DNA of 44,887 nt from the sequence record NC_073081.1. The stretch is one strand, 5' to 3'. The stretch's first letter is position 1, and each line of letters begins with the position of its first letter. This DNA is from Escherichia phage vB_EcoS_Sponge. A program made the position numbers and the translations under genes. Shown one piece after another: positions 9,401 to 40,110 of the stretch. The notes beneath the pieces are model-generated. The model worked only from the letters and a program-made list of their open reading frames with translations. It was not told where the DNA came from and searched no databases.

Positions 9401-9905
9401 CGCGACACAGTTCGGTCAGCAGTCCGCCGCTATCGAGCAGAAGATGACGTCCTCGTTTAACCACTCTGGTGGTAGCGCCACGTATAGCCTTAAGGCGGGC
9501 GTGACGTATAACGGGACTTACTATGATGCGGGTATGCAGCTTTCCGTTGTGACGTCTGGCAACGCGGTTAAATCGCGTATTGCGTTCAAGGCGGACCAGT
9601 TCTACATCATGCACCCATCTAATGGGTCGCTTTCGTCCGCGTTTATTGTTGACGGTGGTCAGGTGTACATCGACACCGCCCGCATCAAGAATGCGTCCAT
9701 TAACTTTGCGCAGATAACGGACACGTTGCAGTCCAACAACTACGACGGCAGTACTCGAGGATGGCGCTTAGGTAAGGATGGAACGTTTATCAACCTGGGG
9801 ACTGGAAGCGGTGGTGGTACAAAGCAGACCAACACCAACTACAGCGTTAAAGACGCGAACGGTGTTTTACGCGTGCAAATTGGCGAGCTTACGGGTCGCT
9901 GGTAG
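6486..9905 (+). CDS. central tail fibre / host specificity protein J-like
   Basis: 1139-aa ORF; N-terminus HKGGGGKQHTPQETPDSLHSLAKIRILLALGEGEF resembles the gpJ N-terminus; follows K and I genes; terminator downstream. Confidence 0.85.
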   Translation: MTIIYDVTGHKGGGGKQHTPQETPDSLHSLAKIRILLALGEGEFESITSASELRQRVYLDGTPIQNADLSENFPGARVEFRPGTQHQDVIHGFSAVESEQSVGVKLENGTPWVRQINDTSLDAVRIRIGIPALYTNEDNGDLVGGRIDYKIVVYTDNADPREFRFAAVGKTMSLYERDHRIELPPNVNTGWRVEVHRITADSTSAKVVNDIRVQSITEIIDARLRYPLTALLFVEFDAKAFQNIPRVSIKCKGRKVLIPNNYDPINHTYSGDWDGTFKRAWTDNPAWHWYDICITERFGLGRRIKPQMLNRYALYQISQRCDQLVSDGNGGREIRFKNDMYIQSQTDAWTVLKDLAAIFAGMTWWGNQMLNIVSDQPVAAVSHTITNASVIDGRFDYASGSQKTRYSTFAVAYGNPKNHYEDAIATGQRVELVRRHKINRLDITAIGCTRESEAQRRGHWALISNQLDQQVSFKVGMEGLFFIPGSVVAIADTNISGGFETRGGRLLSDPGTRTVLNTDSEITFRPGDKFLVRTDSGNVETREIASVNGNKVTLKTALDANPIPDQPFCVDGDDIQLQKFRITDLEYDDSTSTFSVRGIEYNDSKYDAVDNGARLDPGIFTQVPDGVMKGPESVTITPSQISSQGQLITNVDIVFPPVKDAVVYEIQWRRTSLQNMEIQWGNDWVNIPRTASNGAHIPNVFSGNYQARVRAIGMGEISSPWVSSPITPIEGRLGGLNAPIITNAISGLHQILWKWNHNNAATDISYTELEVRKTGETEWKFLSNVPYPGAEYAQTSLEFGIYQQLRARVVDKIGNRSDWSAPFEGQVSDKVDEYMKGLEDEFLTSEDGKRFQEAINTIPQGIYEAMLTDAQQLFNARAEYKGIYAEISVAYNVAADAHKAVAQLETLIGTRLDDAEAAIHTLQTAQSTQEQAFAQYQQTVAAKFGEQEAAIQQVQTATADVAGALAEYKTQVATQFGQQSAAIEQKMTSSFNHSGGSATYSLKAGVTYNGTYYDAGMQLSVVTSGNAVKSRIAFKADQFYIMHPSNGSLSSAFIVDGGQVYIDTARIKNASINFAQITDTLQSNNYDGSTRGWRLGKDGTFINLGTGSGGGTKQTNTNYSVKDANGVLRVQIGELTGRW

Positions 9906-11234: not shown

Positions 11235-13319
11235 ATGGCAGCGGGTACACTATCCGTAACGAATAACAGCAAGGCGGTTGTCGGGGTAGGCACGACGTTT
11301 ACCGCGTTTAAAGCTGGCGACTTCTTAACGCTGGTGGTAGGACAAGTACCCTACACCGTAGCGATTGCGTCCATTGAAAGCAACACTGCTCTTACTCTGG
11401 TGCTGCCGTTCGACGGCCCAACGGCGACCGGCCTTGCGTGGGACGGCGTTAAGCGCGATACCATGTCGCTGGCAACGATGGGCGTAACGGTCCAGGCGCA
11501 GAAAGCATTACGCTTGATGATCGCAGATGAAAACAACTGGCGTGCAATCTTCGGCGACGCTGAAGAAATCACGGTAACGCTACCGAACGGGCAAGTTATG
11601 CAGGGCATGTCGTGGGGATATTTGTCCTCCTTGCTGAAGGAAGTAGACCCCGTTGAGATGCGCAACCTTCAACAACAGGCCGAGACGGCGAAAAACCAAG
11701 CTGTTACCGCTAAGGGGCAGGCAGAATCGGCGCGCGACGCAGCTAATACGGCGAAGACTGGGGCGGAGACGGCACGCGACCAGGCTAACAATGCGAAGAC
11801 CGACGCGCAGACCGCAAAAGGCCAGGCCGAATCCGCGCGCGACGCCGCTAACACTGCGAAGACCGGGGCGGAGAATGCCCGCAACCAGGCACAAGGCTAT
11901 CGTGACGAGGCTGAAGGCTTTAAAAACCAGATTAACCCTTCGCAGTTTATGCAGAAGTCGCAAAACCTGAATGACGTTGCCGATAAAGCGAAGGCCCGCA
12001 CTAACCTGGCGTTAAATCGTTTCAACCAGCCGCGCGCCGATTTAACCGAGGTGTACTCTAACGACGACCGTACGGGGTACAAGCTGATTGTAAAAGATAA
12101 CGGCGACTGGGGTGCGATGAAACACGATGGTAGCGCGAATATGGCGCTAAGCATCGGTTTTGGTGGTACTGGCGGCAAGACCGGGGCTGAAGCACGTGCG
12201 TCGCTGAACGTATTTAAACGTGACCGAACATCACTAGGAGAGAGAGATCTGGATACTATCGACGGCAGCGGCGACGGTCCAGGGGTGTATTTCCAGGCGT
12301 CGTCAGCCGCGGCAACGTTAGCGCGCCACTACCCGGAAGCGACAGCGGGGATGCTGGAGGTATTCCAGCACGGGGCAAATGGTGAGTCGGGGGCTATCCA
12401 GCGCTACACGCCGTTTACGATCTTAGCTATTGCGCCGGAAGGCAGCCAGGAATATGCGCGCGCGGGAAAAGGCACATTCTATGTGCGGTCGAAAAACGGT
12501 AACGCCCCTAAATGGTCGCCGTGGTTGCCGTTTCAGACTGGTCTTTATGGTGGCGTTGTCAGTTATCCGGGTACGCAGGAGCGCTCAAGCTGGACGGATT
12601 ATGTCAACGTACTCGCACAACAACCAAGCAGCATGGGGACGTATAACATTCGTTCAGTAGGTTGGGTGAATGCCATCTCATCCCGACACCGTAACGGCAT
12701 CGGCGATGGCCGCAATTACGGTGTTGTTTTTGAGGATGGGCAAATGGCGGCTACCCACTACAAAAACGTAACAGTAAGAAAACAGGTAGCTGGTAACTGG
12801 ATTAACCCCGTCACGTTATGGCATACAGGAAACACCACGGTTGACAGCAACGGCTTTGTGAAGCGCGCATCCCCAATCGTGAAGGTGTTCGGGACCGGTG
12901 ATTTCGAGACTAACGACGAAAGCGAAGGATGCAAGGTCGAGAAAGTAGGCGTAGGAGAGTATCTCATCACCGGATGTATGGCGCTTAACGCTGATCTGGC
13001 CTGGGGTGGCGTGCGTGGCGGTATTGAGGTGCCGAGGGATATTAACGGTCAGCCTATTTTGTGGGTGGATTATGAAGTCAACGCAGACGGTAGTCTTCTG
13101 CTTAAGACGTTCCATCGTGAACATCACGACGCGCCGGTGTTCGCACGTAATACGGTGCCGGGTTACTCAAACGGCGACCCTATTGATATTCCTAACGATG
13201 TTTTTGTGTCAGTGCGTGTGGACATGCCAGAAGATTCGATTTACAACGTACGGGAGCGTGAGATGCGAGCGATTGCTGAGGTTGAGTTAGCAACGGGGGG
13301 TAAGGTGACCGAAGAGTGA
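11235..13319 (+). CDS. tail fibre protein
   Basis: 694 aa from ATG 11235 (GAGGA SD); track start 11208 is TTG. Contains Ala/Lys/Gln-rich coiled-coil repeats (GQAESARDAANTAKTGAE x2) typical of fibre shafts. Confidence 0.7.
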   Translation: MAAGTLSVTNNSKAVVGVGTTFTAFKAGDFLTLVVGQVPYTVAIASIESNTALTLVLPFDGPTATGLAWDGVKRDTMSLATMGVTVQAQKALRLMIADENNWRAIFGDAEEITVTLPNGQVMQGMSWGYLSSLLKEVDPVEMRNLQQQAETAKNQAVTAKGQAESARDAANTAKTGAETARDQANNAKTDAQTAKGQAESARDAANTAKTGAENARNQAQGYRDEAEGFKNQINPSQFMQKSQNLNDVADKAKARTNLALNRFNQPRADLTEVYSNDDRTGYKLIVKDNGDWGAMKHDGSANMALSIGFGGTGGKTGAEARASLNVFKRDRTSLGERDLDTIDGSGDGPGVYFQASSAAATLARHYPEATAGMLEVFQHGANGESGAIQRYTPFTILAIAPEGSQEYARAGKGTFYVRSKNGNAPKWSPWLPFQTGLYGGVVSYPGTQERSSWTDYVNVLAQQPSSMGTYNIRSVGWVNAISSRHRNGIGDGRNYGVVFEDGQMAATHYKNVTVRKQVAGNWINPVTLWHTGNTTVDSNGFVKRASPIVKVFGTGDFETNDESEGCKVEKVGVGEYLITGCMALNADLAWGGVRGGIEVPRDINGQPILWVDYEVNADGSLLLKTFHREHHDAPVFARNTVPGYSNGDPIDIPNDVFVSVRVDMPEDSIYNVREREMRAIAEVELATGGKVTEE

Positions 13320-13324
13320 AAGAA

Positions 13325-13348
13325 AGGGGCCGTGCGGCCCCTTTTTTT
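13325..13348. terminator. bidirectional intrinsic terminator between fibre gene and leftward operon
   Basis: aggggccg-tgc-ggcccct hairpin followed by T7 on + strand; convergent gene ends on both sides. Confidence 0.7.
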
Positions 13349-13922
13349 AGTTTGAGTTTTCCCAGTCCATTTTTCGCCGCACCAGCGGGCTTTCGTAATA
13401 TTCCTTACCGTCCACTTCCACCAAAGGCCAATCGTTCACGATCACGAATGGCTCCGCAATATCCTCGATCACGCCGCGCGCGCTATGTTGCCAGAACGAC
13501 ACCCCCACCAGAATAACACCGGCAACTCGACGAGTGAGATACTCGCGAGCGCAACGCGCCTCTACCAGTCCGCGACGGATGCCGCTGGTGGCTTTGACCT
13601 CATATGTCCATACGGCATCAATCATGTGTTCTTTGTAGTCGGGGCCGGACTTAACCTTGCGCTTGCCGACCATGATAATATCGCCGCGGTCGATAGTGTT
13701 AGCGCTAAACAGGCCAGTACGCATTAGCAAACCTTGTGGAATACAGCTACGCCCTCCCGCCTGCCCTTCGAGGTACATGCCTGCAAACATCTCGCCCAGC
13801 ACACCGACAAGACGGCTTTGCTTGCACGCGTCAGACTTGTATCGCCACTGGTCAAACTCGATGCTTGCTATCATTGCCGCCAGGTGGAATTGTTTACCCG
13901 ATATTTCATATTCGCCGTACAT
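13347..13922 (-). CDS. hypothetical protein with PD-(D/E)XK-like motif (putative nuclease)
   Basis: 191-aa ORF; segment SGPDYKEHMIDAVWTYEVK fits PD...(D/E)xK spacing; GAGGG SD. Confidence 0.4.
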   Translation of the reverse strand: MYGEYEISGKQFHLAAMIASIEFDQWRYKSDACKQSRLVGVLGEMFAGMYLEGQAGGRSCIPQGLLMRTGLFSANTIDRGDIIMVGKRKVKSGPDYKEHMIDAVWTYEVKATSGIRRGLVEARCAREYLTRRVAGVILVGVSFWQHSARGVIEDIAEPFVIVNDWPLVEVDGKEYYESPLVRRKMDWENSN

Positions 13923-13964
13923 TGTGTTGCCCTCATTGATGCGGGCCGAAGCCCGCGATTAGAG

Positions 13965-14486
13965 TTATTTAAGTGCGCCAGTCACCAGTGTTTTTTCCAT
14001 GTTACGGAAGTCTTCCGGCGTCAAGAGGATTTTAGATCCGTCTTCGCCGGTGAGTACGACCATAGGCTGTACGTCCTGATCTGCGATGCCAAAATTAGCG
14101 GCTTTAACCGTCTTGCCCTCAGATGAAGAAGGATGCCACGTCCCAGCGGAGGCGATGGGCCAACCTTTTAGGCTGTCGAATTGTGCTGCCGTTGTGTCGA
14201 TCTGAATCTCATCATGCACGGTCATGTAAGACTCGCCCAGCAGGGCGGCATACGCTACCAGGTCAACGATGTTATCTTCCTGGTGCTTACGGTGCTGGCG
14301 CACCAGCTTCAGGCAGATCAGGAAGGTCCAGGCTTCTTGCTCGGTAAGATCGCGCCCGGTAAGCGCGTTAAACACGGCGGCTACCTGTTTAGCGCTGCGT
14401 TCTTCTTTCGCGTTGTCATAGCCGTTTTCTTTCCCGCGCTGTTCCATAGTGGTGGCGGCGTTTTTGCAGTATTCGTATGCTTTCAT
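13965..14486 (-). CDS. hypothetical protein
   Basis: 173-aa ORF with AAGGA SD; no confident motif. Confidence 0.45.
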   Translation of the reverse strand: MKAYEYCKNAATTMEQRGKENGYDNAKEERSAKQVAAVFNALTGRDLTEQEAWTFLICLKLVRQHRKHQEDNIVDLVAYAALLGESYMTVHDEIQIDTTAAQFDSLKGWPIASAGTWHPSSSEGKTVKAANFGIADQDVQPMVVLTGEDGSKILLTPEDFRNMEKTLVTGALK

Positions 14487-14550
14487 GATGTTTTCCTTTT
14501 TAGTGGGAGGCGGTATTGCCTCCCGATGTGGTTAAGATACTGCAACCAAC

Positions 14551-15021
14551 CTATTGGTTGCGAGTGAATTTTGCAACGTTTATTGCGTAAATTTTCGGGA
14601 CTAAATCGCCGCACGCCCGACGAATTGCCGCGATGTTCTTCGGACAGTCTTCAATGATGACCAGTTCCGATACGTCCGCATAGCAGACCATTTTGAACAC
14701 AGCGCACGCCTTAAACTCTGGCGGCGGGGTGTCGTCCAGCATGTGGCGCATGAACAACCGGCCTCTAGGGAATACTTCCAATTGCTCGGCTGTGGTGCCC
14801 CGGCATTCTCGCTGCCGGTTGGTCAGGTACGCGATCTCGAAGCCTTGCTCTTTGTACATGGTCAGCAGCGGCAGCATATCCATGTTCAGATCTTCGCGTA
14901 CGTGCGCTCTGTGCCACTTCGCCCAAAAGGTGGATTTAGTTTTTATTCCCGGCACCAGGTCGGCGCGCGCATCGCTTGAACCGTTAATGACGCCATCCAA
15001 ATCACAAATCAGTAGTTTCAT
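14551..15021 (-). CDS. HAD-superfamily phosphatase (polynucleotide 3-prime-phosphatase / nucleotidase-like)
   Basis: N-terminal DxDGV motif (LICDLDGVI) characteristic of HAD hydrolases; GAGGA SD before ATG 15021. Confidence 0.6.
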   Translation of the reverse strand: MKLLICDLDGVINGSSDARADLVPGIKTKSTFWAKWHRAHVREDLNMDMLPLLTMYKEQGFEIAYLTNRQRECRGTTAEQLEVFPRGRLFMRHMLDDTPPPEFKACAVFKMVCYADVSELVIIEDCPKNIAAIRRACGDLVPKIYAINVAKFTRNQ

Positions 15022-15242
15022 TTTAATTCCTCAACCAAATCCGAACGAACAACTCTGGCGGAAAACTTGTTACACACAAGATGCCAATTTGCGGTTATGA
15101 CAAGCCAGCCGGTAAGGTCCAGACCCAGGATATATTCCGGACGTGACACTCGCTTCACACGATCGCGGCGTGGGTCGATGTTATAGTCTCTTTGCATTCG
15201 GTCTACTACCGCAGGGTCGCGGTCAACGATTAAGATATTCAA
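15018..15242 (-). CDS. hypothetical small protein (TTG start)
   Basis: 74-aa ORF; only TTG start at 15242, preceded by AAGGAG; overlaps the 3-prime end of the Dam gene by 20 nt. Confidence 0.3.
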   Translation of the reverse strand: MNILIVDRDPAVVDRMQRDYNIDPRRDRVKRVSRPEYILGLDLTGWLVITANWHLVCNKFSARVVRSDLVEELK

Positions 15243-15708
15243 GGAGTTCTCCTTCGCTCATTATTTCAATTTGTGCGCTGCCGATGGGTGGCGCTTCGTC
15301 AAAGATTATCAATTGCTGGCACTTGTTATTGCTAGGCCCGACTTCGCCGGTGACGGCGTGTATAAATCTAATCCGCCAGTCCAGAAGAATTATCAGGTTT
15401 GCAGTCTTCCGGGCCAGCTTCGCCCACTTCGTCGACGTGTCCTGATTCAGTAGCATGACAGTCCGGCGTCCGTGCGCTGCACACTCGACCCACGGCAGCG
15501 GATCGGAATACGGCGGATTGCACCACTTCCACCCTTTCAACTCTGACCAGTCCACATCAAGCGCGCTGTGCTCTGCCGTGAAGTAACGCGGTAGCAGATG
15601 GTTGGCGTCGCTTGCCGCCATATCGTAACGGAATCGGAACTTACGGCGCAGCGGTTTGAATAAAGCTGGCGGCGTGCGCCAGCTATCTTTTTGCTCACTC
15701 TTCTGCAT
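15223..15708 (-). CDS. DNA N6-adenine methyltransferase (phage Dam-like)
   Basis: WRTPPALF near N-terminus and catalytic NPPY motif (WKWCNPPYSD); 161 aa as typical for phage-type Dam. Confidence 0.8.
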   Translation of the reverse strand: MQKSEQKDSWRTPPALFKPLRRKFRFRYDMAASDANHLLPRYFTAEHSALDVDWSELKGWKWCNPPYSDPLPWVECAAHGRRTVMLLNQDTSTKWAKLARKTANLIILLDWRIRFIHAVTGEVGPSNNKCQQLIIFDEAPPIGSAQIEIMSEGELLEYLNR

Positions 15709-16159
15709 GACCTGGATCTATCGCGTATAAAGGGACTTTATTGCCGGTTTTCATAACGCGCTGGACGCGCTTTGACTCCTCGGCGCTCATTGGGCGCATA
15801 TCAGTGCTATAACCACCGTTTGATGTGTGCCGCCACGCTATCAGCACCAGATCTTTCCGGTCGATCTTAGACTGGCGGCCCTTCGGTCGCACGTACGCCT
15901 CGGCCCGTTTGCAATGCTCGCGCAGACATTCGGCAGTGATGCGGTTTAGCGCGACGGTGGTTGTGTACCCAGTGCGCTGCATAATACCCATCAACTCATA
16001 CAGCAGTTCGAAGCGCTCCTCTAATTCCTTGCGCGCCTTCTCCTCGCCTTCATAGCTCGCCAGGTAGGTGTCCGCCAGCGCGTTCGCGCGTTCGGCCTGT
16101 TCGCGGGCTTCGAGGCATTGCGCGGCCCAGTAATTTTTCTCTTCTTGTAAAATTTTCAT
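15695..16159 (-). CDS. hypothetical protein
   Basis: 154-aa ORF, GGAG SD, overlaps Dam start by 14 nt; predicted coiled coil at N-terminus. Confidence 0.45.
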   Translation of the reverse strand: MKILQEEKNYWAAQCLEAREQAERANALADTYLASYEGEEKARKELEERFELLYELMGIMQRTGYTTTVALNRITAECLREHCKRAEAYVRPKGRQSKIDRKDLVLIAWRHTSNGGYSTDMRPMSAEESKRVQRVMKTGNKVPLYAIDPGHAEE

Positions 16160-16483: not shown

Positions 16484-16807
16484 TTACGCATAAAAGTTCG
16501 GGTCGCGTGCAACGTCTACCAGGTAAAGGTTGCTTATGCGGTTGCCGTAGTGCCCTGGAGTGCGCTGGCGGCACACAACGGCGAAGCCTGGAGGGATTGT
16601 ATTGCCCGTCTCAATAATCCACGCCACGCGTGCGCCGGACAGCGTCTTGCCGTTGCATTCGATACGTGTTCCGCCATCGGCAGTGTTGATGTTGCCAATT
16701 TTGCAGCCGGTGGATTTCAGGCGAATTACGCCGGTTTTGCTGTCGTAGGTGAATAGCTGGTTAGTCATTGCGACCGAAAAGTCGATGGCTTCGAATGAAG
16801 TATTCAT
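16484..16807 (-). CDS. HNH-type endonuclease-like protein (possibly degenerate)
   Basis: N-terminal F.YDSKTG.I.LK and C-terminal GNRISNLYLV resemble HNH_3-type homing endonucleases; the canonical His is not evident. Confidence 0.4.
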   Translation of the reverse strand: MNTSFEAIDFSVAMTNQLFTYDSKTGVIRLKSTGCKIGNINTADGGTRIECNGKTLSGARVAWIIETGNTIPPGFAVVCRQRTPGHYGNRISNLYLVDVARDPNFYA

Positions 16808-17499
16808 TTTAAATTTTCCTCGTTAACCGCTATCGCGAAGCCGCGCGGAGTGAGCGACCGGATTAATTTTGTGCGGGCTGATTTGCCTCCGAGGCGACTA
16901 TACTGCTTCGAGTACCCTTTTTCAACGAAAACAGGTCTCTTCTCGGGCATACGGAAGCCGTTGCCGGTCCATAAGCAGGTCAGCTTCGGATATGAGTCGC
17001 GGGCGTTGATGTATTCAGGGAACAACGGATGTACGTCATCCTCCGGCAGATATCCCCCATACTCCCACGGGTCGAACGAGTGATCAGGCTTGCGCCACTG
17101 GGTGGAAAGCACACTGCGCGGATTCTCAATCATATATGGCACTTCGAAGAAGTCACCCAGGTAAGCGGCGATCTTCGCGGTGCGCACCGCCTTAAGCTGA
17201 AAGGCTGGGTCTTTTGCACGCTTGCGCGGGAAAGCTGGAGCGCCGCTCACCGCCAGATCCGTGCACGGAGGGAACGCATAGATGATATCTGGCGTACCAA
17301 AATCGCCATTCATCGCGCGGTCCACGAAGTCCAGATCGATAAACTCATTGCGATACCGGATTCCGCGACCATAGATACGATAGTCAAGGTAAGACCCGTG
17401 ATCGGCTTCGGAGTAGTTAAAGCAATAACACTTATGCCCCATCTCGGCAGCACGCTCAATCATCAAACCGCTGCCGTCAAACAATGACCAGATTATCAT
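16804..17499 (-). CDS. compact DNA (cytosine-5)-methyltransferase-like protein
   Basis: Motif I-like LFDGSG, motif IV-like Pro-Cys (AFPPCTDLAVSG), motif VI-like ENP, C-terminal GFAIAV; only 231 aa; ATGA overlap with helicase stop. Confidence 0.55.
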   Translation of the reverse strand: MIIWSLFDGSGLMIERAAEMGHKCYCFNYSEADHGSYLDYRIYGRGIRYRNEFIDLDFVDRAMNGDFGTPDIIYAFPPCTDLAVSGAPAFPRKRAKDPAFQLKAVRTAKIAAYLGDFFEVPYMIENPRSVLSTQWRKPDHSFDPWEYGGYLPEDDVHPLFPEYINARDSYPKLTCLWTGNGFRMPEKRPVFVEKGYSKQYSRLGGKSARTKLIRSLTPRGFAIAVNEENLK

Positions 17500-26294: not shown

Positions 26295-26624
26295 ATGAAT
26301 ATCAAAGAAGCAATTGAAGTGTTATCTAATGCAATCCGCGGCGAAGCGGGTAAATCCTGGTATTACACAAATGCGGTGGATACTCTGTTATTTGAAGTGT
26401 CCAGATTATCGCGTGCTGAGAAGGAGCTTACCGCGAAGCTGGAATTGCTCAACGGCACGGCAGCAAGCAAGCTGCAAAAACACAATGAAGAAATGGAAGA
26501 ATACAAAAAACAGGTTATCCGTCTACGTGAGGAAGGTAAATCCTGGGCGATGATTGCCGAGTTGACCGGAATTAATCAGAGCACAGTGCGCTCCTGGGTA
26601 CGCAATAATAAAACTTCTAAGTAA
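26295..26624 (+). CDS. early helix-turn-helix DNA-binding protein
   Basis: 109-aa ORF, AGGAG SD; C-terminal HTH-like segment KSWAMIAELTGINQSTVRSWV; coiled-coil N-terminus. Confidence 0.5.
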   Translation: MNIKEAIEVLSNAIRGEAGKSWYYTNAVDTLLFEVSRLSRAEKELTAKLELLNGTAASKLQKHNEEMEEYKKQVIRLREEGKSWAMIAELTGINQSTVRSWVRNNKTSK

Positions 26625-31583: not shown

Positions 31584-31825
31584 TTATCTCCGTCCTGTTG
31601 TTTGTTATCATCGGGGCTTCGTCCCTGTTTAACGTGTATGCGCCGTCCGTCCGGGATGGCATTTTCGGTCGGGTGCTGTATCTGTTAACGGCAATGGTCT
31701 GTATTATCGGATTGCTGCAAACAGGCGACGTATCGGATACCACCTGGACCGCGTTAATCTGGCTGTTTGCATTGCGCACCCTGCGTAATGCTGTTTTGAA
31801 TGGGGTAAAACATGCGATTCAGTGA
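31580..31825 (+). CDS. second holin/antiholin-like membrane protein
   Basis: 81 aa, ATGA-coupled to the holin gene; hydrophobic segments; overlaps endolysin start. Confidence 0.45.
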   Translation: MIISVLLFVIIGASSLFNVYAPSVRDGIFGRVLYLLTAMVCIIGLLQTGDVSDTTWTALIWLFALRTLRNAVLNGVKHAIQ

Positions 31826-32303
31826 CAACGGTCTACGATTTACGGCAGCATGGGAGGCTTTCAGCCCGGTGCCGTATTTCGCGACCAAGAAAGAGCAGGC
31901 CCGCGGCCTGTACACCTGGGGCTATGGTCACACCGGAACTAACCCGCCACGAAGCATTACCCGTGCAGAAGCGCTGGAACTGCTCAAGCGAGATGTGGCG
32001 TATGCCGAGGACTGGGTGAACAAATACGCACATCCGAGCATTAACCAGGCGCAATTCGACGCGCTGGTGGACCTGGTAATCAATGCCGGTCCTGGTCCGA
32101 TCGTACCGGATGACGTCGCGAATGATTTCGATGATGCGGTGCGACTGGGCGACTGGGCGAAGGTACGAGCTACTCTGCCGCAGTTCCGCAAGCAAGGTGG
32201 CGAAGTGCTTAAGGGTCTGGTGCGCCGTGCAATCGGCAGGCAAGCGCTATTCGATGGTAAGCAGTGGGACGTTGCCGAGCGAATCGGGCGTAACGCAGCA
32301 TAA
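31812..32303 (+). CDS. endolysin, GH24 phage lysozyme family
   Basis: Conserved pattern NGL..L...EAF....Y....GLYTWGYGHTG and NQAQFDALVDLVINAG with C-terminal RRAIGRQALF, as in P22/T4-type lysozymes. Confidence 0.8.
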   Translation: MRFSDNGLRFTAAWEAFSPVPYFATKKEQARGLYTWGYGHTGTNPPRSITRAEALELLKRDVAYAEDWVNKYAHPSINQAQFDALVDLVINAGPGPIVPDDVANDFDDAVRLGDWAKVRATLPQFRKQGGEVLKGLVRRAIGRQALFDGKQWDVAERIGRNAA

Positions 32304-32319
32304 TACGAGGTAACACAGT

Positions 32320-32487
32320 ATGTTAAAAAGCATTCTTGATCATAACGCTGACGCGCTCGCCGCGCTGGCTAAAACCGAAGACCCTGGCGCACGCGCTATC
32401 ATCGCGGACTCTATCAACCACGCTGGGGTCTTCGATGCGAAGCTGCCAAGCCCGCCACCGCCGGAAGAACCCGGCCCCGCAGCGTAA
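32320..32487 (+). CDS. hypothetical small protein (55 aa)
   Basis: ATG 32320 to TAA 32485-32487; Pro-rich C-terminus; followed by terminator; under track cut-off. Confidence 0.3.
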   Translation: MLKSILDHNADALAALAKTEDPGARAIIADSINHAGVFDAKLPSPPPPEEPGPAA

Positions 32488-32494
32488 ACAATCA

Positions 32495-32518
32495 AGCCCG
32501 GATAATACCGGGCTTTTT
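32495..32518 (+). terminator. intrinsic terminator after lysis cassette
   Basis: agcccgg-ataata-ccgggct followed by TTTTT. Confidence 0.7.
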
Positions 32519-32582
32519 ATTGCTTGACTCGCAACCAACATAGACGCCATACTGCAACCAACCAATGAGAGGAGTAATCAAG

Positions 32583-32663
32583 ATGGCACGTAAAGATATT
32601 TGGGTATTAGCGATCTGGACCACCGCGGCTTTTATCGGTATGGTTATTTGCGAATTGCTATAA
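32583..32663 (+). CDS. 26-aa hydrophobic peptide
   Basis: MARKDIWVLAIWTTAAFIGMVICELL; strong SD AGGAG 8 nt upstream; two GCAACCAA motif copies just upstream. Confidence 0.35.
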   Translation: MARKDIWVLAIWTTAAFIGMVICELL

Positions 32664-32724
32664 CCCGCCGCAATATGGACCGTGGTATATTGTCCTCGGT
32701 CCCATAATCAGGAAGTGGATTAAT

Positions 32725-33867
32725 ATGCACCCGCAAACTAAAATCACCGACGAGCAATTGATCGCCGAGTTGCAATCCGGCACTACCGCGAAAGAGATTG
32801 CGAAGAAGTACGGTCTTTCCCTACGAAATGTCTACATGCGCAAAGCCCGCCTGTCGAAGAAAGGTATTGGTCATGGTAACGATGCCGTAATCCGTAAGCG
32901 CGTTGCCGATGGCTTCGGCGTTAAGCGCGTATCCGCCCTGGTGCGCGGCAATGGCGAAGAGGTCATGTCGTGGGTTATCACTGAGCAGGACAAGGAGCGC
33001 CAGCTTGAAGCCATGCGCGCTGTTGTCGAGGGCATGAACAGCGAAATCACACCGGCAGCACCAGTAAGCGCCCCGCCAGTCCCGATCCAGGCGCTCGACC
33101 TACTCAACCTATACACTGTGTCAGACTTCCACCTGGGCATGTTGGCCTGGGGCGAGGAGACTGGCGAAGACTGGGATATGGCGATTGCCGAAGACCTGTT
33201 CTACCGCTGGTTTGTCGAAGCCTTCGCACGCGCACCGGACGCAGGCACTGCCGTAATTAATATCCTCGGAGATATGGCCCACTTTGACAGCCTTGACGCC
33301 GTCACACCGGCAAGTGGTCACGTACTGGACGCGGATACCCGCTACCAGAAACTGGTCCGCTACATGATCCGCATGGTGCGCAACGTGGTAGACCTGGCGC
33401 TGCAAAAACACCACAAAGTCAAACTGCTAATCGTCCAGGGTAATCATGACGAGTCAGGCATGATTTGGCTTGCTGAGATGTTCAATACCCTGTATGAGAA
33501 CGAGCCACGCGTCGATGTGGACACGTCCCCGGACGTCTACAAAATGGTGCAGCACGGTAAGACCACGCTATTTTTCCACCACGGACACAAAGCGCGATTC
33601 GATGTTATCGAGCAGGTTATGATCGCTAAATTTAGACAGGCATTCGGGTCGAGCGAATACAGCTACGCGCACGTAGGCCATTTGCACCACCAGAAGATTG
33701 TTGAATCCCGCAACATGATTGTTGAACAGCACAGGACGCTCGCAGCGAAAGACGCCTACGCCAGTCGTGGCGGATGGATGTCCGGTCGCAGCGCAAACGT
33801 CATCACCTATAGCGCCAACTACGGCGAAGTAGCGCGCTTAACCATTAGCCCGGAAATGTTGAAATGA
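32725..33867 (+). CDS. HTH domain fused to calcineurin-like metallophosphoesterase (Mre11/SbcD-type motifs)
   Basis: N-terminal HTH-like TAKEIAKKYGLSLRNVYMRK; phosphoesterase motifs DFH, GDMAHFD, GNHD, HHGH, GHLH in canonical order; 380 aa. Confidence 0.6.
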   Translation: MHPQTKITDEQLIAELQSGTTAKEIAKKYGLSLRNVYMRKARLSKKGIGHGNDAVIRKRVADGFGVKRVSALVRGNGEEVMSWVITEQDKERQLEAMRAVVEGMNSEITPAAPVSAPPVPIQALDLLNLYTVSDFHLGMLAWGEETGEDWDMAIAEDLFYRWFVEAFARAPDAGTAVINILGDMAHFDSLDAVTPASGHVLDADTRYQKLVRYMIRMVRNVVDLALQKHHKVKLLIVQGNHDESGMIWLAEMFNTLYENEPRVDVDTSPDVYKMVQHGKTTLFFHHGHKARFDVIEQVMIAKFRQAFGSSEYSYAHVGHLHHQKIVESRNMIVEQHRTLAAKDAYASRGGWMSGRSANVITYSANYGEVARLTISPEMLK

Positions 33868-34076
33868 TCAGACAAGTATTCATGAGCACGCAGGCCACCC
33901 GCCTGAAAGAACTACGCAAACAACTCGAAGGCTTGCGCCGATTTGAACGAACGGCAGCGGCAGTCGGAATGTCGATGGACGAGAGGATCGAAATACTGTC
34001 GCAAATACGCTACACAGAAGGCGCGATAAGAGAAGTACAAAGCATGTTAACCCGATACTACGGGCGCGACGTTTAA
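33864..34076 (+). CDS. hypothetical small protein
   Basis: 70-aa ORF, ATGA-coupled to upstream gene; predicted coiled coil. Confidence 0.4.
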   Translation: MIRQVFMSTQATRLKELRKQLEGLRRFERTAAAVGMSMDERIEILSQIRYTEGAIREVQSMLTRYYGRDV

Positions 34077-34094
34077 ACCGCATAGCCTGCCGAT

Positions 34095-34123
34095 TTGGTG
34101 GGCTTTTTTGTGCCTGTTATAAT
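34095..34123 (+). promoter_or_regulatory. putative extended -10 promoter upstream of terminase genes
   Basis: TGtTATAAT (34115-34123) with TTGgtg 17 bp upstream (34095-34100). Confidence 0.3.
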
Positions 34124-34193: not shown

Positions 34194-34745
34194 ATGGCAG
34201 AAATCAAAGTTAAGGGCCGACGCGCCAAACTGGACGGACGAGTAGCAGTAACCCCGCGCCGTAAACCAGGCGAGCAAACAGAGCATACCAATCTCGGACC
34301 TGAAATCGAGTACGGAAAGCGCCGTAAAGGCGGCAAATGTGGACGACCTACTGACTACCGATCCGTTTACTGCGACCAGCTTCGCCGCTATTTTGCCGAC
34401 GCCGACGCCTGGCAGGTCAACTACTCCGATAAAGGCGCTGCGCAAGTAATCCCTCGCAACAAAATGCCAACCTTCGGTCGATTTGCCGCGGAAATCGGTG
34501 TGGGCGTCGCTTGCCTGTATCGCTGGGCGCGCGCACATGAGGAGTTCGCCGAGGCGATGGCGGACGCGATGGAGTTGCAGAAAACCTTCCTGATGGAAGC
34601 TGGCGGCGTGACCATCGCGGCGGGCTTCGCGACCTTCCTGCTTAAAGCCAACCACGGCGTCCGCGACGATATCCAACTGGATGACGACGAAGATGATAAC
34701 GGCGATGTTGTTGTCGAACCTACCGGCAAAGGCCAGGGCGAATAA
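34194..34745 (+). CDS. terminase small subunit
   Basis: 183 aa immediately upstream of and TAATG-coupled to large terminase; basic N-terminus, HTH-like segment (GRFAAEIGVGVACLYRWARAHEEF), acidic C-terminus. Confidence 0.6.
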   Translation: MAEIKVKGRRAKLDGRVAVTPRRKPGEQTEHTNLGPEIEYGKRRKGGKCGRPTDYRSVYCDQLRRYFADADAWQVNYSDKGAAQVIPRNKMPTFGRFAAEIGVGVACLYRWARAHEEFAEAMADAMELQKTFLMEAGGVTIAAGFATFLLKANHGVRDDIQLDDDEDDNGDVVVEPTGKGQGE

Positions 34746-36130
34746 TGCGTAACTATGCGGCAGAACACCGCGCACTGGAACGCGCGATCGCAAAGCGCAA
34801 CAGACCACCACGCCCGACACGCGTTGCGCAGGCGGTGCGTCTTTACCAGCCTGATTGCCTACCGCACCAGGTTGAACTACTGCGGGACACGAAGACTAAA
34901 ATCCTCGGCCTGTGCTCTGGCTTCGGCGGCGGCAAGTCATGGGTCGCAGCCCGTAAGGTAATCCAGCTTTTAACCCTGAACCCTGGTCATGATGGCATCG
35001 TTACAGAGCCGACTATTCCACTCCTGGTTAAGATCATGTACCCGGAATTGGAAAAGGCTTTCGACGAGGCTGGCTTCCGGTGGAAGTTCAACAAGCAGGA
35101 CAAGATCTATAGCGTTCTGGTGAAAGGCAAATGGACTCGCGTTATCTGTGAGTCGATGGAGAACTATACCCGCCTGATCGGGGTTAACGCCGCGTGGATT
35201 GTTGCCGATGAGTTCGACACCACGAAGCAAGACGTCGCAATGGCGGCATACCACAAATTGCTAGGTCGTCTGCGTGCGGGCGTGGTCCGTCAGTTTGTCA
35301 TTGTATCCACGCCGGAAGGCTTCCGGGCAATGTATCAAATTTTCGAGGTGGAGAAGGATAGCCAGAAACGTTTGATCCGGGCGAAGACCACCGACAACCA
35401 CCATTTACCGGCAGACTTTATCGACACGCTGCGCAGTCAGTACCCGGCCAACCTGATTGATGCGTACCTGAACGGCCTGTTTGTTAACCTTACGTCGGGC
35501 GCGGTGTACAAGATGTTCAACCGCGAGGAGAACGCCAGCACCGAAGAAGTGCAGCCGGACGACACGCTGATTATCGGTATGGACTTTAACGTCACTAAAA
35601 TGGCGGCGGTCGTATACGTCCGACGGCAGCGAATCACAGAGAACAAGGAGTTCCGCGACGAGATTCACGCGGTGGATGAATTTGTGGACCTGTTCGACAC
35701 CCCGGCTATGATTGCGGCGATCGAGGAGCGCTACCCCGATCATTGTGCCGCCGGTCGTGTTGTCGTCTACCCGGATAGCAGCGGCAAATCCCGCAAGACG
35801 GTCAACGCGTCGTCGTCCGATATCGCGCAACTGGAAGATGCGGGCTTCAATGTGGAATATGACAGCGTTAACCCACCTGTGAAAGACCGATTGATCGCGA
35901 TGAATACGATGATGTGCAACTCGAAGGGCGTGCGCCAGTATTTTGTCAACCTGGATAAATGCCCTACACTAGCGAAATGTCTGGAACAGCAGGTTTACGA
36001 CCTGAAGAAAGGCGAGCCGGATAAAACTGCCGGTGTAGACCACATGAACGATGCCGCGGGCTACCCTATTGCGCACTTGTTCCCTGTGATTCGTCCGATC
36101 GCCGTTGTTCCAACCGTAGACTTCTACTAA
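34745..36130 (+). CDS. terminase large subunit
   Basis: Walker A GFGGGKS, Walker B WIVADEFD, C-terminal nuclease-like acidic residues; 461 aa; followed by portal gene. Confidence 0.85.
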   Translation: MRNYAAEHRALERAIAKRNRPPRPTRVAQAVRLYQPDCLPHQVELLRDTKTKILGLCSGFGGGKSWVAARKVIQLLTLNPGHDGIVTEPTIPLLVKIMYPELEKAFDEAGFRWKFNKQDKIYSVLVKGKWTRVICESMENYTRLIGVNAAWIVADEFDTTKQDVAMAAYHKLLGRLRAGVVRQFVIVSTPEGFRAMYQIFEVEKDSQKRLIRAKTTDNHHLPADFIDTLRSQYPANLIDAYLNGLFVNLTSGAVYKMFNREENASTEEVQPDDTLIIGMDFNVTKMAAVVYVRRQRITENKEFRDEIHAVDEFVDLFDTPAMIAAIEERYPDHCAAGRVVVYPDSSGKSRKTVNASSSDIAQLEDAGFNVEYDSVNPPVKDRLIAMNTMMCNSKGVRQYFVNLDKCPTLAKCLEQQVYDLKKGEPDKTAGVDHMNDAAGYPIAHLFPVIRPIAVVPTVDFY

Positions 36131-36141
36131 GGAAACCAACC

Positions 36142-37662
36142 ATGACCGTTAACGTTGACAACCAGCACCCGCTCTATGCGCGCATCTCGCCAGAGTGGAA
36201 AATGATCCGTGATTGTGTAGCAGGGGAGCGCGCCGTGAAGGCGTGCGGCCCCTTGTACCTGCCGCATCCAGCAAGCGGCGACACCACCGACCCGAAATCA
36301 CGGGCACGCTATAAGGCATATAAGCAACGTGCTGTCTTCCTGAACGCCACCGCCCGCACACTGAATGCACTATTAGGCGTGGCCTTCGCCAAGCCTGTGA
36401 GTATGGACCTTTCCGGGGCAATGGCTGACCTGATTGATGACGTAGACGGCAGCGGGATGCCACTGGCGCAACTCCTGCGCGGCGCTATGTCGGAAGTGCT
36501 GCAATCGGGCCGCGCTGGCTTTATGGTGGACTACGACCGCCAGGCTAACTTTGATGAACTGGGTAACGTAGTGCCGCAGACAGCCGCTGAAATGGCGACA
36601 CACCGCCCGCTTATCCGCTTGTACACGGCAGAACAGATCATCAACTGGCGGCAGACCCACGGTATTGACACGCTAATCGTGCTGAAGGAGACGGACGAAA
36701 TCAGCACCGAAGACCCGGACGACTTCGCAAACCACGAAGTAACGATCTGGACCGAGCTTCGCATGATTGCAGGTAAGGCCCACGCCCGCCGCTGGTTTTA
36801 CAACGCTGACACGTCCGAGGTGCAGATGGACTTGCCGCGAGGCTTCACCCGCACCGACCTTGTACCATTGGTGGATGCCTCCGGTAATGCGCTAACTCAA
36901 CTGCCATTTTGCTGGTGTGGCGCGGTGGACAACAACGCGACACCGGACGCCGCACCGCTGGCGGATATTGCGTCCATCAACATTAAGCACTACAACGCCG
37001 AAGCGGACGTCGCCGAGATTGCGCACATCGTGGGGCAACCTACCCTCATTGCGACTGGTCTTACCCAATCATGGGCGGACAAGAACCTGAAAGGCGGCAT
37101 CGCGCTCGGGGCAACTAAGGGCGTTATCCTGGGCCAGAACATGGACGCCAAACTGCTTCAGGCGGAGGAGCGCAACTTGTCTGTTGCCCTATGTGAGCGC
37201 CGAGAATTGCAAATGGCTAAACTGGGCGCGGCCCTGGTCGAGAAGGGGACCGCACCTAAGACGGCAACCGAGGCGGCCTATGATGCACAGACTGATAACA
37301 GTATCCTGTCACTGATTGCCGGTAACGTCGAGAAGGCTTTCAACCGTGCGCTGCAAATCGTCAAGCTGTTCACGGGCGACACCGCAGATCAACGCGTAAC
37401 GCTGAATAAGTTCTACACCGAAATCACGGTTGACGCACAGCTTATGACCGCAATGATGGCGGGTGTGCAGACTGGTACGGTCCGTCTGGCGGACTTTATC
37501 AAGTGGATGATGGCCCAGGGCGTTATTGATGACTCGCAAACCGTCGAGCAGGTGGAAGACGAACTGCGAAATCAGAATCCATTGCCTCAAATGTCCCCGG
37601 ATGCGGTAGAATCGACCGAAGAAGCCCCGGACGAGGTAGCGGACAATGGCGAAGACAATTAA
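36142..37662 (+). CDS. portal protein
   Basis: 506-aa ORF directly after large terminase; acidic C-terminus; synteny. Confidence 0.75.
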   Translation: MTVNVDNQHPLYARISPEWKMIRDCVAGERAVKACGPLYLPHPASGDTTDPKSRARYKAYKQRAVFLNATARTLNALLGVAFAKPVSMDLSGAMADLIDDVDGSGMPLAQLLRGAMSEVLQSGRAGFMVDYDRQANFDELGNVVPQTAAEMATHRPLIRLYTAEQIINWRQTHGIDTLIVLKETDEISTEDPDDFANHEVTIWTELRMIAGKAHARRWFYNADTSEVQMDLPRGFTRTDLVPLVDASGNALTQLPFCWCGAVDNNATPDAAPLADIASINIKHYNAEADVAEIAHIVGQPTLIATGLTQSWADKNLKGGIALGATKGVILGQNMDAKLLQAEERNLSVALCERRELQMAKLGAALVEKGTAPKTATEAAYDAQTDNSILSLIAGNVEKAFNRALQIVKLFTGDTADQRVTLNKFYTEITVDAQLMTAMMAGVQTGTVRLADFIKWMMAQGVIDDSQTVEQVEDELRNQNPLPQMSPDAVESTEEAPDEVADNGEDN

Positions 37663-39196: not shown

Positions 39197-39961
39197 TTAG
39201 CGCGGAATGCCGCAAATCTCGTTAAGTGTTTTCACGTCCAGCGCCACTGCCGTGGATTTTGGCTTGTCCGGGTACGGGATGAATTGCTCGACTTCAGGCC
39301 ATGCCTTAATAAGCTTCTTGTCAGTATTGTGCAGGTCCAGTACACCGGTAACGGTGAGTTTGAACGCATCATACTTCGCGCGCAACTCGCGACGGGCCTT
39401 GTCGTTGCGGTCCAGGCGCTTACAGAAGTCATGATCTGCAGGGTAGTCTACGCGACCGCGAGGGAGATATATCGGCAGCGCTTTCCCGTCCTCGTCCACT
39501 TCGCACACTGACGCGAGCATAACTGCCTCGAACCCAGGAACGATATCGCCGAGATCAGGCGCTAGCTTATTCATATATTTCTCTTCCCAGTACCCGCGAT
39601 GTATGCGGTATTGGCGACCGTCGCCGCTCAATGACAAGGTGCGAACATTGCCGCCTGCGTTGATTTCAAAGGTTGCGTTATAGACGCTGCCGATACCCTT
39701 CGGGCGGTCGGAGTTATAACTATACGTCGCCTTGTTGGTGTATACGCTGACGCCGTACATCTGCGACTGGTCATCGCGGATTAACAGGATATGCTCGCGG
39801 AGCGCTGCGAACGTGCGAATGCCTTCCGGCATACAGTCCAGCGTGATTGCGTACGCCAGGTCGCGAGAGTCCATCATGATTGTTTTGGCTTCGGTAGCGA
39901 TTTCGTGGTCGCGCAGGATGTTAGCCAGAATCTGGTTTTTAATGTCTTTTGTCAGTCTCAT
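39197..39961 (-). CDS. hypothetical protein encoded antisense within the head module (moron-like)
   Basis: 254 aa from ATG 39961 (GAGGA SD); lone minus-strand gene between spanins and scaffold, own terminator; no recognisable motif. Confidence 0.5.
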   Translation of the reverse strand: MRLTKDIKNQILANILRDHEIATEAKTIMMDSRDLAYAITLDCMPEGIRTFAALREHILLIRDDQSQMYGVSVYTNKATYSYNSDRPKGIGSVYNATFEINAGGNVRTLSLSGDGRQYRIHRGYWEEKYMNKLAPDLGDIVPGFEAVMLASVCEVDEDGKALPIYLPRGRVDYPADHDFCKRLDRNDKARRELRAKYDAFKLTVTGVLDLHNTDKKLIKAWPEVEQFIPYPDKPKSTAVALDVKTLNEICGIPR

Positions 39962-40110
39962 TTTTGTGTCCTCGTTGTTGGTGTGCAACCAATATAGTGC
40001 AACCAATACGCGGATTGCAAGCGAATTTTGCGATTATTTTTATCGCTGATAATATTAGAAGCGTGAAGTCGAGCGGGTGGCCTGCTCTGCCACAATCCCA
40101 GGGGGATAGC

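Follow-up and report, generated by a model that had tools for sequence, protein, structure and literature searches.

A helix-turn-helix metallophosphoesterase of Escherichia phage vB_EcoS_Sponge belongs to a large phage family and is a candidate DNA nuclease

We have analyzed a gene of Escherichia phage vB_EcoS_Sponge (sequence record NC_073081.1; the whole stretch of 44,887 nucleotides is referred to as the window) that occupies positions 32725-33867 on the plus strand and encodes a protein of 380 residues. The protein is composed of a basic helix-turn-helix (HTH) of the LuxR/sigma-region-4 type, a hairpin-helix connector specific to its family, and an intact binuclear metallophosphoesterase (MPE). 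With moderate confidence, we propose that it is a DNA nuclease tethered by its own HTH, which would serve DNA or nucleotide metabolism and not packaging. By profile assignment it is an ordinary member of a catalogued, widely annotated phage family, PHROG 704. The adjacency of its gene to the terminase genes is an accident of gene order in this phage, with no evident functional meaning.

The initial annotation had described the product as an HTH-like segment joined to a complete calcineurin-like motif set, and this description is borne out by the translation, by the fold of the HTH, by an alignment of 30 homologues at 32-81% identity and by an AlphaFold2 model of the protein (pLDDT 83, pTM 0.73). 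The N-terminal module (residues 5-48; 32737-32868, plus strand) is basic, with a charge of +6 over the first 50 residues, and is modeled as three helices (9-17, 22-29 and 33-45) that superpose on the LuxR/FixJ (GerE) and sigma-70 region 4 class. The connector (residues 60-106; 32902-33042, plus strand) consists of a beta-hairpin (64-73 and 79-88) and a long helix (90-106), from which a linker leads to the enzyme domain. Its consensus, VPDGFxxKGxSxLxxxxGxxxxxWVK, spans residues 60-95, and G77 and W83 are invariant in the 30-sequence alignment. The remainder of the protein (residues 126-380; 33100-33864, plus strand) has the alpha/beta sandwich fold of an MPE, and all of the metal-ligand motifs are present in the translation: D134-x-H136 (SDFHLG), G182-D183-x-x-H186-x-D188 (GDMAHFD), G239-N240-H241-D242 (GNHD), H285-H286-G287-H288 (HHGH) and G318-H319-x-H321 (GHLHH).

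The predicted binuclear active site is intact, and the complete set of metal-binding motifs is conserved, because the ligand residues are invariant or nearly invariant among the 30 homologues. D134, H136, G182, D183, N240, H241, H286, G287, H288, G318 and H321 do not vary, and H186, D188, G239, D242, H285 and H319 are kept in at least 90% of the sequences; the initial annotation had made its case depend on such conservation. Two further blocks are conserved and specific to the family, namely AVTPxSGHxLDADxR (residues 190-206), which is a low-confidence loop in the model, and EQHxTLAAxDAYASRGG (residues 333-350). Mean pairwise identity is 42% in the enzyme domain, 27% in the connector and 21% in the HTH. 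The N-terminal extension is present in 141 of the 150 best representatives (at least 340 residues long), and 89% of homologues share a basic HTH module, whereas the connector and the enzyme domain are acidic.

The open reading frame (ORF), which begins with ATG, is certainly a genuine gene, because it gives a full-length match to PHROG 704: residues 5-380 align with positions 2-390 of the 390-position hidden Markov model (HMM) (E = 4.1e-161, 537 bits). The window itself is assigned to Dhillonvirus, the HK578-like E. coli siphophages. Homologues occur in 2,059 phage records, among them T1-like phages, Jersey-, Weber- and Dhillonviruses, and also in proteobacterial prophage-like loci; there were 3,733 matches among 90%-identity clusters and 4,662 representatives at 50% identity, 1,135 of which had E values of 1e-30 or below. 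Identity to the window protein is 95-99% in Dhillonviruses, about 75% in Jerseyviruses and 43-47% in T1-like phages, with length and architecture alike. More than 130 deposited phages are 90-94% identical to the window across the 4 kb that surround the gene, and annotated proteins reach 99.2% identity to the window protein, as in phage PaulFeyerabend. Existing records call these proteins calcineurin-like phosphoesterase, HTH protein, 'DNA repair exonuclease', 'transcriptional regulator', 'HTH luxR-type' or 'sigma-70 region 4 domain-containing'. The PHROG 704 label, 'DNA repair exonuclease', is computational, and the name is a superfamily-level transfer, because profile matches are weak, no solved relative was detectable and the MPE core ends the protein.

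The initial annotation had foreseen that profile searches might place the protein in a well-characterized family. A large named family is indeed what they returned, but no known function for it was found in the literature, and characterization of PHROG 704 was found in none of the TLS re-annotation, CRISPRi-ART, the phage-escaper screen, the anthracycline study and the Avs/STAND study. Models of HTH domains matched residues 8-48 below their cut-offs (GerE, 15.3 against 23.5 bits; HTH_28, 16.3 against 25 bits), as did the NCBIfam sigma70-ECF model (12.2 against 42.9 bits). Sequence and profile searches of the PDB gave only spurious repeat-protein and marginal sigma-factor or GerE matches, with neither Mre11 nor SbcD among them, and a structure search of BFVD returned only family members and generic labels. 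A link to the anti-Tmn factor of Dhillonviruses was rejected, as anti-Tmn is a different protein, ORF35 of phage SMS22, which is small and rod-shaped; the trigger of Tmn is Nmad5 (PMC11846954).

As we picture it, the protein would be a metal-dependent DNA phosphodiesterase that works alone: its own HTH would keep it on DNA, and no ATPase of the Rad50/SbcC type would drive it. Its role would lie in phage DNA or nucleotide metabolism, either in the breakdown of host DNA to feed deoxynucleoside monophosphate (dNMP) salvage or, alternatively, in the trimming of replication and recombination intermediates. A nuclease is plausible by analogy, because phage T5 A1 (bioRxiv 10.64898/2026.04.02.716235) and mycobacteriophage A10ZJ24 Gp48 (PMC12287305) are stand-alone phage MPEs that degrade DNA. 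No Rad50/SbcC-like gene was found in the window or in the T1, SETP7, Webervirus, Vibrio or Rhizobium phage contexts, and no ATPase family is among the 25 most frequent downstream PHROG families at bacterial loci. We infer DNA as the substrate, and likewise the timing of expression and the biological role. A bolder version, which we hold only tentatively and think rather doubtful, would make PHROG 704 the counterpart of T5 A1 and its DNA-binding partner A2 fused in one chain, demolishing the host chromosome in siphophages of the T1, Dhillon-, Jersey- and Webervirus types. The phage dNMP kinase or phosphatase would thereby receive dNMPs, and host defence genes would be silenced. Classical T1 genetics defined a host-DNA-degradation function, which the PHROG 704 protein might be; we know of no mapping of that function to the T1 sequence.

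The position of the gene differs between relatives. In T1 the homologue (ORF16/CPTT1_064) ends an operon of helicase, resolvase and Dam genes, and an HNH gene and the lysis cassette lie downstream. The order in Webervirus is methyltransferase, small ORFs, phosphoesterase, HAD hydrolase, dNMP kinase and lysis, and in Rhizobium and Vibrio phages the phosphoesterase gene comes after lysis-type genes. Jerseyvirus SETP7 has a 75%-identical copy on the opposite strand within the tail module, where a three-gene island (12694-14293, minus strand) interrupts the tail genes; it holds the phosphoesterase, a 59-residue membrane protein named 'immunity to superinfection' and an unrelated 76-residue ORF. 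The phosphoesterase is the most conserved protein that the window shares with SETP7, at 74.6% identity, compared with about 65% for DNA polymerase and helicase, 48% for lysozyme, 41% for the large terminase subunit (TerL) and 30% for the portal protein. This high identity despite the differing location fits either strong purifying selection or the relatively recent transfer of a self-contained cassette.

Bacterial genomes were surveyed at 66 proteobacterial loci, which are suggested to be prophages because many lie on large contigs or complete chromosomes. No cluster of neighboring genes was common to more than 9 of 60 of these loci. HMMs built from the clusters were used for a census within 8 kb at the 47 loci with more than 14 kb of sequence, and found an endolysin at 31 and a dNMP kinase or dNMP phosphatase at 12. 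The commonest PHROG family among the 149 downstream ORFs from loci of this length was the dNMP phosphatase; TerL families accounted for about six ORFs, dNMP kinase and integrase for three each, and pyrophosphatase, deoxyribosyltransferase and HNH genes for two each. At one prophage-like locus, of Pseudomonas sp. P818 (L015), a lambda-Q-like antiterminator gene (9122-9484; phrog_79, E = 1.5e-25) lies directly downstream of the homologue, an arrangement that recalls the nin region of lambdoid phages and would give the family such a position in at least one prophage of lambdoid type. Across all of these contexts, the phosphoesterase gene tends to border early (replication and nucleotide) and late (lysis and packaging) modules, without a fixed partner.

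A number of results weigh against the proposal of an HTH-tethered DNA nuclease. The protein falls below the gathering thresholds of both Metallophos (PF00149; 20.3 against 21.5 bits) and Metallophos_2 (PF12850; 23.5 against 27 bits). One homologue cluster (P0083) has a precomputed PF12850 match, and by these scores PHROG 704 proteins are too divergent for the Pfam MPE models. The kinship with SbcD/Mre11 that the initial annotation had put forward for profile searches did not emerge: NCBIfam gave no SbcD or Mre11 match, and hhalign of the PHROG 704 profile against a single E. coli SbcD sequence, which is a weak test, gave 2% over 15 columns. The same comparison gave 16% over 21 columns with T5 A1, around GNHD only, and 25% over 87 columns with Bxb1 gp47, a mycobacteriophage MPE, across motifs III-V only; with T5 A2 the probability was 0.8%. 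The search of the literature found no experimental study of any PHROG 704 member. Genes for dNMP kinase or phosphatase are neighbors in only about a quarter of loci, and nucleotide-metabolism neighbors would be equally in keeping with an enzyme whose substrates are nucleotides. A recombination-type exonuclease (phrog_69) is already present in the window phage, and SETP7 has no annotated methyltransferase with which to protect its own DNA from such a nuclease. The MPE fold itself is generic and favors nucleases only marginally.

An unlikely alternative, although one that these neighborhoods would suit, is a small-molecule phosphodiesterase or nucleotidase that acts on cyclic or linear signaling nucleotides of defence systems or on (deoxy)nucleotides for salvage, with the HTH used for autoregulation or localization. 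It would be hard to explain with a soluble nucleotide as substrate why a basic HTH is fused to the enzyme almost universally. No PADLOC defence or anti-defence model matched the protein, and to our knowledge the known anti-signaling phage enzymes (Acb1 and Apyc1) have other folds, which we also count against this explanation.

It is distinctly less probable that the protein is a transcription factor foremost, such as a regulator at the boundary of early and late genes, with the MPE as a sensory or accessory module. The type of HTH, the regulatory names given in some GenBank records, the recurrence of the gene near lysis and late genes, its place directly upstream of the Q-like antiterminator in L015 and the reported interaction of T5 A1 with RNA polymerase all speak for such a regulator; against it, no catalytic residue varies, and conservation is highest in the enzyme domain and not in the HTH. 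A candidate binding site was available in the 9-mer GCAACCAAY, of which the window has 19 exact copies where 0.92 would be expected. Most of the copies are intergenic; many come in pairs or as palindromes, and many immediately follow -10-like hexamers. Examples are at 14542/14561, 16458/16475, 26105, 28919/28973/29008, 29282, 29380/29411, 29958, 32531/32554 and 39985/39999; the pair at 14542-14561 forms the palindrome GCAACCAACCTATTGGTTGC. The 9-mer looks like the operator of a phage regulator, and its copies suggest that the phosphoesterase cassette may be co-regulated with other operons. SETP7, however, has a single copy although the HTH segment of its phosphoesterase is visibly very similar, and we therefore disfavor the phosphoesterase HTH as the reader of the 9-mer. 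A 109-residue HTH protein (26295-26624) is specific to Dhillonviruses, is encoded beside a divergent promoter that bears the motif and has no SETP7 homologue. Because of this context and the single copy in SETP7, the 9-mer is probably read by a regulator other than the phosphoesterase, and the 109-residue protein is the better candidate.

We give still less credence to an end-healing enzyme, that is, a 2',3'-cyclic phosphodiesterase or 3'-phosphatase that would join the polynucleotide kinase (PNK)-like and ligase-like proteins of the phage in mending tRNA or DNA cleaved by defence nucleases of the host. The phosphoesterase module of bacterial Pnkp is an analogue for such an enzyme. The window does encode a PNK-like protein (14551-15021; phrog_415) and a small 154-residue 'DNA ligase' (15695-16159; phrog_10530), T1 also has a PNK-like gene, and a PNK- or HAD-type gene adjoins the phosphoesterase gene in Klebsiella phage MEW1 and in Webervirus. 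In the window, however, about 17 kb separate the phosphoesterase gene from the PNK-like and ligase-like genes, which belong to a different operon on the other strand; no sequence relationship to characterized end-healing MPEs was detectable, and with an HTH, double-stranded DNA seems a likelier target than tRNA. The same early region, all on the minus strand, also has two DNA methyltransferases (phrog_111 and phrog_757; ORFs at 15223-15708 and 16804-17499), and the PNK-like, ligase-like and methyltransferase genes could form a kit for end-healing, sealing and self-methylation. The phage encodes a Gp2.5-like single-stranded-DNA-binding protein as well. These other nucleic-acid genes keep rival end-healing or recombination roles open.

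A role in terminase-dependent packaging is unlikely, and we consider it very improbable that the protein is a nuclease that processes DNA ends or concatemers for the terminase. The initial annotation had placed the gene immediately upstream of the terminase genes and had taken this position as unusual and as pointing to packaging. The small terminase subunit (TerS) and TerL are indeed encoded downstream on the plus strand, TerS at about 34194-34745 (34194 is the most likely start, judging by how relatives are annotated and by where the PHROG match begins) and TerL at 34745-36130 (by Pfam and PHROG assignments and relatives), followed by the portal gene at 36142-37662. The phosphoesterase gene lies about 330 nt upstream of TerS both in the window and in other Dhillonviruses, and the few TerL families downstream of the bacterial homologues also favor a link with packaging. 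However, a 70-residue ORF of PHROG 20931 (33864-34076, plus strand), which overlaps the phosphoesterase stop codon by 4 nt (ATGA), a terminator-like hairpin with a 9-bp stem and T-run (34084-34104, plus strand) and a gap of 117 nt from the end of the 70-residue ORF to TerS all intervene. The adjacency is not kept in T1, Webervirus, Jerseyvirus, the Rhizobium and Vibrio phages or most prophage-like loci. Many Dhillonvirus records begin at TerS, with the cassette as the last element of the preceding module, and TerL carries its own RNaseH-like nuclease domain (Terminase_6C). The adjacency is not meaningful because the gene is part of its own terminator-flanked unit, sits elsewhere in relatives and has varied neighborhoods in bacteria. 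The 70-residue ORF was rejected as an obligate partner of the phosphoesterase: its 73 phage records are all from Dhillonviruses and are all at least 80% identical, and it is unrelated to the small ORF that follows the phosphoesterase gene of SETP7.

Least credible of all is a lambda-type Ser/Thr/Tyr protein phosphatase that modulates host signaling, which has in its favor a common superfamily and a nin-region-like position between replication and lysis genes in some prophage-like loci (lambda NinI, encoded just upstream of Q, is the positional analogue), since motifs II and III read GDMAHFD and GNHD instead of the PPP signatures GDxVDRG and GNHE, the protein does not group with PPP enzymes by these signatures and closest structural similarity, and the HTH would have no role.

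The phosphoesterase gene probably belongs, together with a promoter, a peptide gene, the 70-residue ORF and a terminator, to an autonomously transcribed cassette between the lysis and packaging modules. The lysis module upstream comprises two holin genes (from 31293) and a lysozyme gene (31812-32303), after which a 55-residue ORF (32320-32487) precedes the cassette. A terminator-like hairpin (32494-32515, plus strand) with an 8-bp stem, six G-C pairs and a T-run closes the lysis genes and the 55-residue ORF, and in an alignment of five Dhillonviruses the hairpin and T-run are unchanged. It is followed by a sigma-70-like promoter candidate (32524-32553, plus strand), identified by consensus only, in which TTGACT and CATACT are separated by 18 nt and match the consensus at 9 of 12 positions; its -35 is unchanged in all five phages and its -10 is kept in four. 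The two upstream motif copies noted in the initial annotation are present as copies of the 9-mer on the plus strand, both GCAACCAAC: the first (32531-32539) lies in the promoter spacer adjoining the -35, and the second (32554-32562) directly after the -10 hexamer. The phage without the -10 is HH3, in which a 23-bp deletion extends exactly from one GCAACCAAC copy to the other (about 3290-3300 of locus L001, window 32530-32552) and removes the -10; the deletion looks like the product of recombination or slippage between the two copies.

The first gene of the cassette (32583-32663, plus strand) encodes the small hydrophobic peptide that the initial annotation had also described. It is 26 residues long (MARKDIWVLAIWTTAAFIGMVICELL), has a GAGGAG Shine-Dalgarno sequence and truly starts at the ATG at 32583. 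The gene is kept in the five Dhillonviruses with mostly synonymous or conservative changes, as read by eye from the alignment; HH3 has lost the stop codon of this gene, and there the ORF is annotated with 52 residues. Homology of the peptide to SETP7 gp23 ('immunity to superinfection') was rejected, as BLAST found no similarity between the two. A stem-loop (GGACCG...CGGTCC, 32677-32702) between the peptide gene and the phosphoesterase start is unsupported, because phage mckay breaks two of its pairs without compensating changes (by eye in the alignment).

Two other observations concern repeated words. A minus-strand ORF of 269 residues from a TTG start (39197-40006) lies amid head-module genes, with its 5' end overlapped by a pair of GCAACCAAT motifs (39985 and 39999); this ORF could be a further island under its own regulation. 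A different word, ACGGCAGCG, occurs in 16 copies window-wide against 0.77 expected, and 13 of the copies are on the plus strand (5424, 12262, 15492, 19053, 23167, 24891, 25778, 29695, 33951, 35623, 36446, 37952 and 43746). The copies lie within coding regions of genes on both strands, and their flanks are not conserved; the copy at 33951 is kept in place in four other Dhillonviruses though adjacent bases vary. The core of this word, ACGGCA, is present in 96 copies in the window and in 85 in SETP7, where length alone would predict about 21-22.

Dhillonvirus genes with as much as 99% identity to the one described here are already deposited and annotated, and nothing about function can be read from the place of the gene beside the terminase genes. 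The significance lies with the family, which is large, strongly conserved, and present in T1, in many coliphages that are candidates for therapy, and in Klebsiella and Salmonella phages. If its members were host-DNA-degrading nucleases like T5 A1 or Gp48, this would explain host shutoff and nucleotide supply in many siphophages, and would bear on the transduction risk of such phages in phage therapy.

Among the known systems compared with the window protein, Mre11/SbcD aligns over only about 190 residues, at 13-17% identity, and the margin over MPEs that are not nucleases is tiny. In the AlphaFold2 model the window protein ends with the MPE core and has neither the capping domain nor the Rad50-binding tail of Mre11/SbcD, which in turn lack the N-terminal HTH and connector. 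A GenBank note for T1 cites 99% HHpred probability to SbcD (4LTY), and we read this match as superfamily-level similarity. MPEs of the YfcE/MJ0936 type (Metallophos_2) are single-domain proteins of about 150-185 residues, relative to which the window protein has large insertions (residues 190-206 and 333-350) and a predicted DNA-binding extension of 125 residues at its N-terminus.

Of the phage-encoded systems, T5 A1 and Gp48 are, as far as sequence comparison goes, analogies and not family-level homologues. Gp48 of A10ZJ24, a Cluster A MPE, is a phosphodiesterase that degrades linear, circular and genomic DNA in vitro, and is a counter-defence factor needed to overcome host defences (PMC12287305). 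Like the window protein it is a stand-alone phage MPE; the Cluster A proteins (A10ZJ24 Gp48 and Bxb1 gp47) are about 255 residues long, however, with motif I at residue 10 and no HTH or connector, and their gene lies in the early replication operon of temperate actinophages. T5 A1, a predicted metallophosphatase of 556 residues reported mainly from Demerecviridae, is essential and sufficient for degradation of the host chromosome; its gene is close to dmp, which encodes a dNMP phosphatase, and A1 acts jointly with the DNA-binding protein A2 and is reported to interact with RNA polymerase (bioRxiv 10.64898/2026.04.02.716235). Unlike T5 A1, the window gene is outside any first-step-transfer region. 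T5 A1 and the window protein are alike as stand-alone phage MPEs without a Rad50 partner, and T5 A1 and PHROG 704 are both associated in their genomes with dNMP-metabolizing enzymes. In both cases a DNA-binding module is coupled to an MPE, as a separate protein (A2) in T5 and within a single chain in the window protein.

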